This document shows, piece by piece, positions 32,475 to 37,740 of a stretch of DNA of 64,000 nucleotides. Position numbers and translations under genes: made by a program. Below the pieces are notes generated by a model. That model worked only from the letters and a program-made list of their open reading frames with translations. It searched no databases and was not told the origin of the DNA. The stretch comes from Candidatus Nanoarchaeia archaeon (GTDB lineage: Archaea > Nanobdellota > Nanobdellia > SCGC-AAA011-G17 > JACPNG01). Numbering within the stretch: position 1 is the stretch's first letter; the number at the start of each line of letters is the position of its first letter. The DNA is taken from the NCBI GenBank assembly GCA_028714375.1, contig JAQTMK010000002.1:21812-85811 (forward strand), in the 5' to 3' direction.

Positions 32475-33593
32475 ATGAAACCATTAAGATCAAAATTAAT
32501 GAATTTACTAAGGGAAATAAATCTTGAGTTAAACTATCTCCCCTATTCTTTTAGAAAAAATATAAATCTTAATAATCCAAAAAAGTTTCTTATAGTGGCC
32601 CATTGGTTGATTGGAGACTTAATCGTTCTAACTCCATCTATAAAAGTAATAAAGGATCAATATCCACAAGCCAAAATAGATATAATTATTTCAAAGGGGA
32701 TGAAAGATGTTCTTTCTCTTAATCCAAATATAAATAAAATTTTTGAAATAAACAAAAAAGAAATTGAAGAAAATCTAAAATGGTATTCTGAAAAGTTAAA
32801 AAAAGAAAAATATGATGTTGGAATAATATTCTTTGAGGGAGACAAAAAAACTAGCAGATTGTTAAAAGAGGCAGATATTCCAATAAGGATTGGTTGTGCA
32901 AAATCTGGAGTCAAAAGGGGAAAAGGTTATTATCTCACTAGAAAAACAAAACCAGACCACAAAGAAAAACAATATCTGTTCTACAACTTAGACGTATTAA
33001 AAACAATAAATATATTCCCAAAAGAAATAAAACAAGAAATTTTTGTTGATAAAAAAGATGAAGAAAAATTCAGAAAAATTATGGGAAACAAACTAAAGAT
33101 TGTAGTTCATGCCGTTCCAAACCACAAGACTCATATATGGAACAACAAAAGATTTGCAGAAGTAGCAGATTACCTTATTGAAAGAAAAAAAGCAGCAGTA
33201 TTTTTTACTGGTGCAAAAAAAGATGCCCCCCTGAATGATGAAATAATCTCTCTTATGAAAAACAAAGCTCAAAACCTTGCAGGAGGATCTATAAAAGATT
33301 TCTTTGGAATAATTAAAAATTCTGACTTAGTTATTTCAGTTGATACTTCTGCAATGCATGTTGCAGCAACATTTAATATTCCAGTTATTGCTTTAATGGG
33401 TGCAAGCCCCTACAAATTATGGAAACCTTATTCCAATAGGGCTGTGACTATTTTCCATCCAGAAAAATGCACCGAATGCAGATTATACAAATGCTTCAGA
33501 AAAGGAAAAAGATATATGGAATGTATGGATTCAATAACAAAAGATGAAGTGATACAATCCTGCGATTTACTCCTAAAAGAAAACAAAAAATAG
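32475..33593 (+). CDS. GT9 glycosyltransferase (heptosyltransferase-like)
   Basis: KKFLIVAHWLIGDLIVLTPSIKVIKDQYPQAKIDII matches the GT9 N-terminal signature. Also the C-terminal DTSAMHVAATFNIPVIALMG block. Confidence 0.75.
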   Translation: MKPLRSKLMNLLREINLELNYLPYSFRKNINLNNPKKFLIVAHWLIGDLIVLTPSIKVIKDQYPQAKIDIIISKGMKDVLSLNPNINKIFEINKKEIEENLKWYSEKLKKEKYDVGIIFFEGDKKTSRLLKEADIPIRIGCAKSGVKRGKGYYLTRKTKPDHKEKQYLFYNLDVLKTINIFPKEIKQEIFVDKKDEEKFRKIMGNKLKIVVHAVPNHKTHIWNNKRFAEVADYLIERKKAAVFFTGAKKDAPLNDEIISLMKNKAQNLAGGSIKDFFGIIKNSDLVISVDTSAMHVAATFNIPVIALMGASPYKLWKPYSNRAVTIFHPEKCTECRLYKCFRKGKRYMECMDSITKDEVIQSCDLLLKENKK

Positions 33594-33633
33594 TATAACT
33601 ATCTTTAAATAATCTATTTTTCTCAAAAAGCCT

Positions 33634-35164: not shown

Positions 35165-36595
35165 ATGAAGATAGCTTTAATTAGTGTCAACAAAGGAGAT
35201 ACTCTTCCTTTAAACTTAATTATATTAGCTGGATATCTAAAAAAATATGGTAATTTTAATGAAATTAAGATAATTGATATAAATGTAGACAACATCTATG
35301 AGAGCATATTAAGGTATAAACCTGATATAATTGGGATATCTTCTATGACTGTTTATTATGGATATGCTACAAAACTAGCAAAAAAACTAAAACAAAACAT
35401 AAATGTTCCTATCTTAATAGGGGGAAACCATATATCCACTCTCCCAAATTGTCTCTATGATTGTTTTGATATTGGGATAATTGGGGAAGGAGAAATAACC
35501 ACTTTGGAAGTTTTGAAATTATATGAGCAAAAGAAAAAATTCGAAACAAAAGATCTTCAAAAAATAAATGGGATTGCATTCCATAAGGACAATCAAATTA
35601 AACTTACAGAACCAAGACCATTGATTGAAAACTTAGATGAGATTCCAATTCCAGATTATAGGTTAGTATCTAAAAAATATTTCAAAAAAGTTGTTACACC
35701 TGCCTGGAAAAGAGGAATAACTGCACCAATGGTCACATCAAGGGGCTGTCCATATACCTGTGTTTTTTGCTCAACAAGTATTTGCTGGCATAAGAGAACT
35801 AGATTTCATTCTCCAGACTATGTTGTTGAATATATAAAAATGTTAAAACAAAGATTTAATGTAGACTTTATTTATGTGTGGGATGATATGTTTCTCCTTA
35901 ACAAACCAAGGATTAAGGAAATTGCTGAAAAGTTAAAAAAAGAAAATCTTAAATTAAATTATATAGTCCACACTAGAGTAGAGGTAGTTGATGATGAATT
36001 CTGTAAGATGCTTAAGGAAATGGGGGTTTCAGGAGTACAGTTTGGTTTTGAATCCGGCTCTGAAAGAGTATTAAAATATTTAAAAGGATCCTCAACAAGC
36101 ATAGAGAAAATAAAAAAAGCAGTCCTAACTTGTAAGAAATATGGATTCTTGGTTTATGGTAGTTTCATATTTGGTAGTCCAACCGAAACAATAGAGGAGA
36201 TGAAAGAGACTGTAAGCTTGTTTGATTTTTTAATAAAAGCAGACATTGAAAATGTCTGGACCTATATTATGACTCCTCTTCCTGGAACTAAAATCTGGGA
36301 GATTGCAAAGGAAAGGAATAAAGTAAAGGACGAGATGGATTGGAATGATCTCTCATTCCAGAGAATAGAAAATCCTTTGTTATTAGATGAACATATAAGC
36401 AGAGAAGAATTCAAAAAAATATTTATAGAGGGAAGGAAAAAACTGCAATATTTTAGATGGAAAAAGATTAAAAGAGATCTAATTCATAATCCCCATTATC
36501 TAATACTAAATGCAATCAAAAAACCACAATTATTATTCCAGATTATAAAAGGCCGTTTGAATGAAGAAGTCTGGGCAATAAAGGACGAAATATGA
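35165..36595 (+). CDS. B12-binding-domain radical SAM enzyme
   Basis: N-terminal B12-like domain and SRGCPYTCVFCSTS (CxxxCxxC). Starts 2 nt after the preceding radical SAM gene. Confidence 0.85.
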   Translation: MKIALISVNKGDTLPLNLIILAGYLKKYGNFNEIKIIDINVDNIYESILRYKPDIIGISSMTVYYGYATKLAKKLKQNINVPILIGGNHISTLPNCLYDCFDIGIIGEGEITTLEVLKLYEQKKKFETKDLQKINGIAFHKDNQIKLTEPRPLIENLDEIPIPDYRLVSKKYFKKVVTPAWKRGITAPMVTSRGCPYTCVFCSTSICWHKRTRFHSPDYVVEYIKMLKQRFNVDFIYVWDDMFLLNKPRIKEIAEKLKKENLKLNYIVHTRVEVVDDEFCKMLKEMGVSGVQFGFESGSERVLKYLKGSSTSIEKIKKAVLTCKKYGFLVYGSFIFGSPTETIEEMKETVSLFDFLIKADIENVWTYIMTPLPGTKIWEIAKERNKVKDEMDWNDLSFQRIENPLLLDEHISREEFKKIFIEGRKKLQYFRWKKIKRDLIHNPHYLILNAIKKPQLLFQIIKGRLNEEVWAIKDEI

Positions 36596-37740
36596 GAATT
36601 TGCCATATCAATATGTTTTACTATCCAACAATTGGGGGGGTAGAACAAGTTATGCAGGAACTAGCAGAAAGACAGGTTAAAGAAGGCCACGAAGTTCATG
36701 TCTTCTGTTGTGATTCAGATAAATACAAGAGGATAGAAAAAAAAGAAGAAACTGCAAACGGAATAAGAATACACAGACTTCCTTATTGGTTCAAACTATC
36801 CATATTTACTTACATCTGGCCAACCCTGCTGCCAAGACTATTAAAAGAAAAAAGATTTGATATTTACCATTCCCATGTTTCAGGACATTTATACATTCTT
36901 TTAACAGGCATAGTATCAAGAATAAAAAAAGGAAAACACATTCACACAACCCATTGCCCATGGACAGATTCTTCATTTAGACCAAAGGTCTTAAGACCAT
37001 TGTTATGGATAAACGACAAAGTTCTAAATAAACTTTCTTTTAAGATGATTGATAGAGTGATTTCTATAACTCCCTGGGAAGTTGACACATTCCTCAAAAA
37101 ATACACTAAAAAAGAAAAAATAAAAGTAATTCCAAACGGAATGGACAAAATCCTTTTCAAGAAAGTTAGTCCAAACAATTTTAAAAAAGATAATAATCTC
37201 AAAGGTAAACTGGTTTTGTTTTTTGGGAGACTAAATCCAACAAAAGGTCCAGAAGTTCTTGCTAAAGCAGCAATAGAAATAACAAAAGAGAGAGAGGATA
37301 TCTCATTTGTTTGGGCCGGTCCTGATGAAGGCAAGGCAAAAGAAGTTGAAGAATTAATCAAACCTTATAGGAATATGAAATATCTGGGGCCAATAAAAAG
37401 AGAGGATAAAACCGCTATCTTTCAAGCAGCAGATGTATATGTCCTTCCTAGTTATAGGGAAGGTCTTCCATTAACCTTATTTGAAGCAATGGCTGCAGGT
37501 CTTCCACTAGTTGTTTCTCCTGTTAATGGTGTTTCTTATGAAGTAAAAGATCCTGAAAATGGTTATTTTGTGAATTATGGCGATGTTGAAATGCTGAAGG
37601 AAAAGATACTGAAAGTTTTAGACAATCCAGAAATAGCAAAGAAGATGTCTAAAAATAATATTGAAAAATCAAAAAACTACGATTGGGATATTATTTACAA
37701 AAGATATATGGAAGAATACCAAAAATTAGCTAAGATATAA
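36592..37740 (+). CDS. GT4 (GT-B fold) glycosyltransferase
   Basis: MRICHINMFYYPTIGGVEQVMQELAER and the C-terminal REGLPLTLFEAMAAGLPLVVS (EX7E) are GT4 signatures. ATGA overlap with the upstream radical SAM gene. Confidence 0.85.
   Translation: MRICHINMFYYPTIGGVEQVMQELAERQVKEGHEVHVFCCDSDKYKRIEKKEETANGIRIHRLPYWFKLSIFTYIWPTLLPRLLKEKRFDIYHSHVSGHLYILLTGIVSRIKKGKHIHTTHCPWTDSSFRPKVLRPLLWINDKVLNKLSFKMIDRVISITPWEVDTFLKKYTKKEKIKVIPNGMDKILFKKVSPNNFKKDNNLKGKLVLFFGRLNPTKGPEVLAKAAIEITKEREDISFVWAGPDEGKAKEVEELIKPYRNMKYLGPIKREDKTAIFQAADVYVLPSYREGLPLTLFEAMAAGLPLVVSPVNGVSYEVKDPENGYFVNYGDVEMLKEKILKVLDNPEIAKKMSKNNIEKSKNYDWDIIYKRYMEEYQKLAKI

Follow-up and report, generated by a model that had tools for sequence, protein, structure and literature searches.

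The window analysed here, 64 000 nt of DNA from a Candidatus Nanoarchaeia archaeon, carries two adjacent genes, which we call rsA and rsB, encoding class-B radical S-adenosylmethionine (SAM) enzymes, that is, radical SAM proteins with a cobalamin (B12)-type domain. The pair lies between two glycosyltransferase genes, GT9a of glycosyltransferase family 9 (GT9) and GT4x of family 4 (GT4). Comparison with related genomes indicates that rsA and rsB probably stand side by side because rsB recently moved there. Our working hypothesis, held with moderate confidence, is that the two are independent cobalamin-radical tailoring enzymes, probably C-methylases, that act on different glycan sites, with GT4x and rsA as the stable unit and rsB as a relocated gene.

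The four-gene cluster

The cluster consists of four intact, co-directional open reading frames (ORFs):

32475..33593, + strand: GT9a, a GT-B glycosyltransferase of family 9 (PF01075, E 2e-26, 93.3 bits versus a gathering score of 22)
33634..35163, + strand: rsA, a class-B (B12-domain) radical SAM protein (PF02310, E 5e-15; PF04055, E 2e-17)
35165..36595, + strand: rsB, a class-B radical SAM protein of another family (PF02310, E 5e-17; PF04055, E 2e-25)
36592..37740, + strand: GT4x, a retaining-type GT4 (PF00534, E 1e-36; PF13439, E 3e-28)

The presence of these genes at exactly these positions, and their domain families, had been proposed in an earlier sequence-only reading of this DNA; the former agrees with the ORF listing and the latter is borne out by the profile searches, all Pfam assignments of the four genes being above the gathering scores. 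The nearest solved relatives of GT4x are MshA, PimA, PglA-type enzymes and BshA. The spacer between rsA and rsB, previously given as 2 nt, is in fact 1 nt (TAA-A-ATG), and the overlap of the GT4x start with the rsB stop is seen as ATGA. The gaps between the same-strand genes of positions 31381–37740 are 17, 40, 1 and −4 nt, so the earlier description of a tightly coupled operon holds as regards the common strand and the short or overlapping junctions, but not as regards its extent, since the co-directional run reaches further upstream, from 26527. Positions 31381–37740 have the layout of an operon, and co-transcription is predicted. The same GT9–rsA–rsB–GT4 order is found on an independent contig of the Logan assembly of the same sample (SRR22315509, locus L001), which rules out an assembly chimera.

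Probable relocation of rsB

The closest relatives of the window are the genomes STA_79 (locus L002) and STA_51 (locus L003), whose rsA proteins are, respectively, 81 and 79% identical to that of the window; the three genomes are roughly equidistant from one another. Both loci are collinear with the window over the operon, except that positions 35164–36585 have no counterpart in them. In both relatives rsA is followed by a 34 nt spacer and then by GT4x, and it is in the place of this spacer that the window has a single A and the rsB ORF, whose TGA overlaps the GT4x ATG. Relative to these two loci, rsB is a clean, gene-sized insertion of 1.43 kb. STA_51 does possess an rsB ortholog (P0122, 70% identity), which lies approximately 35 kb away on the same contig, flanked by a 122 aa ORF and an HD-domain gene and situated beside tRNA-Cys and tRNA-Arg genes; that region of STA_51 is collinear with window positions 290–15325, where rsB is missing. 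Among the informative loci of 64 other species, an rsB ortholog next to rsA was found in none, and a co-directional B12-binding radical SAM gene of any kind adjoins rsA in only one of 64 (L021). From these comparisons rsB appears to have been relocated recently to its position between rsA and GT4x in the lineage of the window. The proposal that rsA and rsB form a co-evolving tandem pair finds no support in these observations, the adjacency not being conserved in relatives.

The move would have packed rsA, rsB and GT4x as one unit. By our own reading of the sequence, TTTAAA (TATA-like) boxes are present in the 40 nt spacer before rsA and in the rsA–GT4x spacer of the relatives. The latter box could be a GT4x promoter, in which case its loss in the window would tie GT4x expression to read-through from rsA and rsB.

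Where STA_51 has the rsB ortholog and the HD-domain gene by the tRNAs (locus L078, 10001–12194), the window has, at 6511–7691, two tRNAs and the following ORF:

6511..7074, − strand: phosphate propanoyltransferase-like (PTAC) ORF

Gene content turns over at this place beside the tRNAs. The operon itself also differs in gene content among the three genomes. STA_51 has an extra class-I methyltransferase gene between its SGNH gene and GT9a (L003, 8175–8842), and STA_79 (L002, 2340–3433) is without the two SGNH-type ORFs found at 30233–32457 of the window. The operon is a gene-level mosaic among relatives of approximately 80% identity, a pattern typical of variable glycan loci.

The conserved GT4x–rsA pair

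Orthologs of rsA, with identities of 54–81%, were found in 76 species-level genomes, nearly all of them carrying the label Nanoarchaeota, Pacearchaeota, Woesearchaeota or no more than 'archaeon'. A single short contig is assigned by binning to Methanobacterium, and 'bacterium' is the label of two records. Neighbours were counted by calling ORFs in the rsA-ortholog loci and labelling them by similarity to the proteins of the window. GT4x orthologs (60–89% identity) lie directly upstream of rsA in 28 loci, with a 4 nt overlap in 11. GT4x and rsA, usually translationally coupled in that order, are the evolutionarily stable unit at this locus. GT9a adjoins rsA in only two of 67 loci, those of the two closest relatives.

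In the window, GT4x is followed by five genes that recur around rsA elsewhere:

37726..38445, − strand: QueC-like PP-loop ATPase, convergent with GT4x (PF06508, E 8e-39; SGGLDS PP-loop and C-terminal CxnCxxCxxC motif)
38689..39600, + strand: soluble family 2 glycosyltransferase (GT2) with no hydrophobic segment (PF00535, E 6e-16)
39986..40459, − strand: nucleoside 2-deoxyribosyltransferase-like (NDT-like) ORF (PF05014, E 5e-19)
40454..41569, + strand: GT9b, a second GT9, 20% identical to GT9a (PF01075, E 1e-15)
41601..43316, + strand: GT-C (PMT-like), a polytopic membrane glycosyltransferase with about ten hydrophobic segments (PF02366, E 7e-8)

The QueC-like gene, on the opposite strand, was found in 36 loci, in 27 of which it immediately follows rsA, and the NDT-like ORF occupies the same relative position in 28. 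GT2 is downstream of rsA in 46 of 60 loci and GT-C in 39 of 50, GT9b is present in 28 of 57, and genes for AglB, GPT and Wzx (Agl-type) neighbour the rsA block in several loci. The whole arrangement, GT4x, rsA, QueC (reverse), GT2, NDT-like (reverse), GT9b and GT-C (window 36592–43316), is an alternating-strand block seen in about 28 of loci L002–L077. Two genes of nucleoside or deazapurine type, QueC and the NDT-like ORF, thereby lie between glycan genes in species that are deeply diverged from one another.

The rsA and rsB proteins

The two proteins are 27% identical (blastp, E 2e-26), and their family alignments are 26% identical over 390 columns (hhalign, E 8e-47). In comparison with the other B12-binding paralogs of the window, rsB shows 30–32% identity over approximately 400 aa to two and 28% over 273 aa to the third, and is thus closer to these than to rsA. 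Because of the low mutual identity and this greater closeness to other paralogs, rsA and rsB are judged to be anciently diverged paralogs; they belong to different orthogroups and not recent duplicates. A recent, undiverged duplication with one dead copy, which the sequence-only reading had named as the case that would undo it, is excluded by the same identity together with the CxxxCxxC motif, which is intact in both proteins.

The cysteines of this motif (C200, C204 and C207 in rsA; C195, C199 and C202 in rsB) are invariant in both family alignments. The N-terminal domain carries GVSAY65, GG93 and GEGE114 in rsA and GISSM57, GG86 and GEGE107 in rsB. Alignment of the rsA family shows no variation at G65, at GG or at the G-E-x-E of GEGE, and that of the rsB family none at GG or GEGE. 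These motif types, GxSx[YM], GG and GEGE, match those reported to contact cobalamin in OxsB, TsrM and TokK (PMC9204698). They follow strands beta3 and beta4 and precede helix alpha5, a position consistent with the secondary structure of the AlphaFold2 (AF2) models. The models are confident (predicted local distance difference test scores of 87.8 for rsA and 89.8 for rsB) and have class-B folds. With both the radical SAM cluster motif and an N-terminal Rossmann B12-type domain in place, rsA and rsB qualify as class-B enzymes, are predicted to use cobalamin and both look functional.

Attempts to place either enzyme in a characterized family by NCBIfam, by sequence search of the PDB and by Foldseek yielded generic class-B similarity only. 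Neither reached the NCBIfam cutoff of any curated class-B equivalog (BchE, HpnJ, HpnR, PhpK, GenK-like, MgmA, BzaD, AprD4 or the ladderane radical SAM protein), the best scores being 89.5 bits versus a cutoff of 360 for rsA and 161.3 bits versus 481 for rsB. The structural matches (TsrM, MgmA, AprD4, OxsB, CysS and TokK) share 13–19% identity.

The C-terminal domains of rsA and rsB differ. In rsA the last 100 aa or so are helical and very basic, with 26 K/R versus 5 D/E among the 98 residues from 412 to 509. Two rsA orthologs (P0358 and P0372, 55–57% identity) contain an intein of approximately 435 aa, in one case with a LAGLIDADG endonuclease domain. The insertion site is directly before the third cysteine of CxxxCxxC (…RGCPNSCTY/C…intein…N/CSN…, slashes marking the intein ends), which corresponds to C207 of the window rsA (positions ~34252–34254), a gene that has no intein. 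As the intein is inserted exactly before this residue, the cluster-ligand cysteine doubles as the +1 splice nucleophile.

Proposed function

Each enzyme would use a 5'-deoxyadenosyl radical and cobalamin to tailor an unactivated carbon, and the substrates may be different sugar residues, or different positions, on cytoplasmic lipid-linked glycan intermediates, with the modification falling between glycosyltransfer steps. C-methylation would be the most likely reaction, because most annotated class-B radical SAM enzymes are methylases (PMC9204698). GT9a and rsB would then be variable accessory steps that diversify the glycan and rsA with GT4x would make a conserved feature. The basic, helical C-terminal part of rsA may serve to bind a pyrophosphate-lipid or the surface of the membrane.

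A connection with glycosyltransfer is supported by P0431, a natural fusion protein of 1034 aa in which an rsA-like B12 radical SAM region (36% identical to rsA over residues 2–459) is joined to a GT2 (522–639) and a class-I SAM methyltransferase (825–999); we regard it as a Rosetta-stone link for this radical SAM subfamily. The Agl-type genes that neighbour rsA in several loci point the same way. Members of the rsB family (44–50% identity) likewise occur in glycan clusters of Halobacteriota, of Aenigmatarchaeota and on another archaeal contig. Those of Halobacteriota and Aenigmatarchaeota lie inside nucleoside diphosphate sugar clusters, with a GT4 gene directly downstream and a Wzx or methyltransferase gene on the other side.

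Sugar-methylating class-B enzymes that act at different positions are known, namely GenK and GenD1 of gentamicin, Fms7, and MoeK5 of moenomycin (PMC9204698). Like them, rsA and rsB combine a B12-type Rossmann domain at the N-terminus with a radical SAM barrel bearing CxxxCxxC, and are encoded among glycosyltransferases; pathways can employ several such enzymes, each at its own position (PMC9204698). However, rsA and rsB are not orthologous to them, with curated scores far below cutoff, and their host locus is an archaeal cell-surface glycosylation island and not a bacterial antibiotic cluster.

Several points weigh against this proposal. Neither family has a characterized member, the NCBIfam matches being far below cutoff and the solved structures distant, and because of this the chemistry and substrates of both enzymes are inferred from context and their cobalamin dependence is predicted. 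The structure closest to rsB is that of AprD4, which is not a methylase. Finally, rsB may be so tightly packed because its co-expression with rsA is selected for, and the two may be functionally linked in this lineage.

Alternative explanations

The sequence-only reading took the tandem arrangement as a sign that a single sugar is modified by the two neighbouring paralogs, in sequence or iteratively, for example in two C-methylations of the same residue. The 1 nt spacer and the ATGA overlap do make co-expression of rsA, rsB and GT4x likely, both proteins are intact class-B enzymes, and aminoglycoside pathways are known to employ more than one class-B methylase (PMC9204698). Against this, the adjacency is confined to the lineage of the window, being absent from both closest relatives and from the 64 other species; the rsB ortholog of STA_51 is solitary, which implies that rsB works without rsA; the two proteins are diverged in sequence and in their C-terminal domains; tandem adjacency occurs at about the background density of B12-binding radical SAM genes in these islands (see below); and the iterative methylations that are known are each the work of one enzyme, TokK, ThnK and CysS being examples (PMC9204698). 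On this balance we consider joint action on one sugar improbable. Radical sugar chemistry other than methylation, such as an AprD4-like 1,2-diol dehydration or deoxygenation, a ring contraction of the HpnJ or OxsB kind, or an epimerization, is unlikely too, if less so. AprD4 (PDB 6fd2), a radical SAM 1,2-diol dehydratase that acts on a sugar substrate, paromamine, is the best solved match of rsB both by sequence (E 1.5e-15) and by template modelling score (TM-score, 0.71–0.74 over ~467 columns). The two proteins share 17–18% identity, and rsB scores 71.7 bits where membership of the AprD4 family requires 500. AprD4 has a B12-like domain but is not known to use cobalamin. In rsB the GG and GEGE motifs, typical of cobalamin binders, are retained, and cobalamin-contact motifs are present in both rsA and rsB and largely invariant in both families. 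HpnJ, which contracts the glucosamine ring of hopanoids and works with the GT2 HpnI, is a class-B radical SAM enzyme that acts on a lipid-anchored sugar beside a glycosyltransferase, and it is among the top NCBIfam matches of both proteins; its scores are nevertheless 84.6 (rsA) and 144.6 (rsB) bits versus a cutoff of 577.6, and no hopanoid genes are present in this archaeal setting. Non-methylase class-B enzymes are well documented, but all the scores to their families are far below cutoff, and the majority of annotated class-B enzymes are methylases (PMC9204698).

Modification of lipids, either of the dolichol carrier or of membrane isoprenoids, would have precedent in the characterized archaeal class-B enzymes GrsA/GrsB and Gmm (PMC11214058). 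Like rsA and rsB these are archaeal class-B radical SAM enzymes, but their context is tetraether lipid synthesis, that of rsA and rsB being glycosylation. The best NCBIfam matches of rsA are lipid-associated (the ladderane family TIGR04072 and HpnJ), and its basic helical C-terminus would suit binding to a membrane surface. On the other side, those matches amount to 85–90 bits versus cutoffs of 360–578, the conserved neighbours are glycosyltransferases, flippases and AglB, and the rsA homolog P0431 is fused to a GT2. DPANN archaea, moreover, are largely without lipid biosynthesis, and we judge a lipid substrate very improbable. The explanation to which we give least credence makes rsA, QueC and the NDT-like gene partners in the modification of nucleosides, 7-deazapurines or RNA. 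The frequency of both genes near rsA, the highly basic C-terminal domain, the very strong conservation of the rsA family and the inteins in some orthologs would all fit such a role, but QueC and the NDT-like gene are on the strand opposite to rsA, rsA is translationally coupled to a GT4, and its block also includes GT2, GT9 and GT-C genes and often abuts those for AglB, GPT and Wzx.

We therefore retain independent tailoring of different glycan sites by rsA and rsB. Under that reading the tandem pair itself is of little consequence, its adjacency probably being the result of a recent gene relocation, and the more interesting by-product of the analysis is the phylum-wide GT4x–rsA core, which is among the most conserved gene pairs of Nanoarchaeota glycosylation islands. 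More tentatively, it is possible that rsA and GT4x, together with the GT2, GT9b and GT-C of the block, belong to a Nanoarchaeota-wide, near-essential pathway for an envelope glycoconjugate, with a cobalamin radical SAM reaction on a lipid-linked sugar as a key step; rsA is very highly conserved, at 57–65% identity across the phylum, is translationally coupled to GT4x and has had its cluster motif invaded by inteins, all of which is consistent with this. If so, these ultra-small symbionts would have an obligate need for vitamin B12 in order to build their cell surface. Should rsA prove to be a sugar C-methylase dependent on cobalamin, or something related, archaeal glycobiology would gain a new reaction type and the surface of these genome-reduced symbionts would be tied to an externally supplied vitamin; our literature searches on radical SAM proteins in DPANN or archaeal glycosylation clusters found no radical SAM step in archaeal surface glycosylation.

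GT9a and the question of heptose

The assignment of GT9a to GT9 survives the profile searches, and the protein aligns over its full length (residues 37–371) to PDB 3tov (E 3e-18) and to WaaF (1psw; E 1.5e-12). It does not reach the level of a heptosyltransferase equivalog, falling below every NCBIfam cutoff: 122 bits versus 467 for RfaQ, 100 versus 134.6 for HepII, 104 versus 170 for HepIII and 70 versus 185 for HepI. In common with WaaC, WaaF and WaaQ, the GT9 enzymes of the lipopolysaccharide core, GT9a keeps the N-terminal GD, D-[ST]-x-x-M-H (DTSAMH) and AL-x-G (ALMG) motifs in the alignment with WaaF. It differs from them in having HIW for the KRW motif in that alignment and in its genomic context, which includes neither lipid A nor 3-deoxy-D-manno-oct-2-ulosonic acid (Kdo) and, within the window, no heptose-nucleotide genes. 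A search of the scanned ORFs of the 64 kb window for the heptose-nucleotide pathway (GmhA, HldE/HddA, GmhB and HldD/HddC) found no SIS, PfkB or GHMP domain.

The remark that a GT9 is unusual for an archaeon does not apply to this phylum. Approximately 75 homologs of GT9a were found at 36–75% identity, the few that are named being from Nanoarchaeota, Woesearchaeota, 'archaeon' and one 'bacterium', and GT9b is conserved near rsA as described above; bacterial GT9 proteins match GT9a at 24–28% identity only. A literature search for GT9 in archaea returned nothing directly relevant.

Tandem radical SAM genes in other genomes

Tandem pairs of this kind are not peculiar to the window. The Nanoarchaeota loci contain nine other co-directional tandem pairs of B12-binding radical SAM genes in seven other genomes (loci L006, with two pairs, L009, L021, L022, L032, L034, L043 and L080), five of them with overlapping ORFs. 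A B12-binding radical SAM gene has another as its co-directional downstream neighbour in 8 of 84 cases (~10%), which is near the density of such genes there. The rsB-like genes sampled from metagenomes form arrays with as many as five consecutive members, which occur at many GC contents and are flanked by GT2, GT4 and methyltransferase genes; loci L092, L106 and L112, of varied GC content, have three to five consecutive B12 radical SAM genes with flanking GT2 and methyltransferase genes. The metagenome scan, made with the rsB family alignment, recovered mostly distant paralogs (25–39% identity) and no rsB-ortholog contexts. Tandem B12 radical SAM arrays and GT9 genes are common in this phylum, and tandem B12 radical SAM genes among glycosyltransferases are a recurring variable feature of the glycan islands of DPANN archaea and of many uncultivated microbes. 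The locus described here, made up of uncharacterized members of known enzyme classes, is an unremarkable example of the variable segments of DPANN glycosylation islands.

The surrounding glycosylation island

The window has a GC content of approximately 30% along its whole length. The protein-database entry that matches rsA at 100% is from a metagenome-assembled genome (MAG) labelled 'Candidatus Nanoarchaeia archaeon' (DPANN), and the window also codes for an archaeal AglB/STT3 and an IF-2B family protein. An Rfam scan of the window found three tRNAs and no other match. Positions ~15–62 kb (~47 kb) are one glycosylation island of this Nanoarchaeia MAG. Its transferases comprise two GT9, three GT4, five or six GT2 and three PMT-like GT-C proteins. 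Two Wzx flippases, a GlcNAc-1-P-transferase-like gene and AglB are also present, as are a polysaccharide deacetylase, DegT aminotransferases (one fused to a nucleotidyltransferase domain) and enzymes for O-acyl and carbamoyl decoration.

The co-directional run that ends with GT4x begins with the following genes, and also includes a small membrane protein:

26527..28059, + strand: Wzx/MurJ-type flippase, the first gene of the run ending at 37740, collinear with L003 (PF01943, E 2e-30)
28483..30246, + strand: NodU/CmcH-type carbamoyltransferase, a candidate for glycan O-carbamoylation (PF02543, E 2e-86; PF16861, E 1e-68)
30233..31174, + strand: possible SGNH-like protein with an N-terminal membrane anchor (hydrophobic residues 7–39), absent from L002; family evidence very weak
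31381..32457, + strand: SGNH/AlgX-like esterase or acyltransferase with a membrane anchor, ending 17 nt before GT9a

The third of these has no Pfam family, and its NCBIfam GDSL match (E 0.0079) scores 15.5 bits versus a cutoff of 300. The fourth matches PF16822 (E 5e-7; 30.2 bits, above the gathering score of 26.5) and PF13472 (E 2e-7; 32.4 bits, just below the gathering score of 32.9). The carbamoyltransferase and the two anchored ORFs (28483–32457) suggest that the glycan receives O-carbamoyl and O-acyl groups in addition to its radical SAM modifications.

The island contains five B12-binding radical SAM genes and two without a B12 domain; rsA and rsB hence have three B12-binding paralogs in the window, and not four as had been counted:

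17899–19320, 22675–24138 and 45097–46416: other B12-binding radical SAM proteins
24172–25305 and 43263–44324: radical SAM proteins without a B12 domain

One of the paralogs belongs to a triad with overlapping junctions on the + strand (44426–47921), formed by a GT2 (44426–45100), the B12 radical SAM gene (45097–46416) and a PMT_2-type GT-C (46413–47921). A comparable group at 15283–19320 consists of a GT-C, a GT2 with C-terminal hydrophobic, transmembrane-like segments and, on the opposite strand, a B12 radical SAM gene. A general pairing of each B12 radical SAM gene of the island with a GtrB-like polyprenyl-phosphate GT2 and a GT-C was considered; it is borne out only in part and we do not build upon it. 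The GT2 at 17022 is the one that has the C-terminal hydrophobic segments and abuts a GT-C, and those at 38689 and 44426 lack any hydrophobic segment.

The minus-strand run at 17899–24138 comprises a B12 radical SAM gene, two class-I methyltransferases, a CDP-alcohol phosphatidyltransferase, an LPG_synthase_TM protein and a second B12 radical SAM gene, and looks more like lipid head-group chemistry than like glycan assembly. At the edge of the island, on the minus strand (13991–15265), a PNP_UDP_1 nucleoside phosphorylase domain is fused to a phosphoribosyltransferase domain, in a protein that has a 78% identical counterpart in STA_51.

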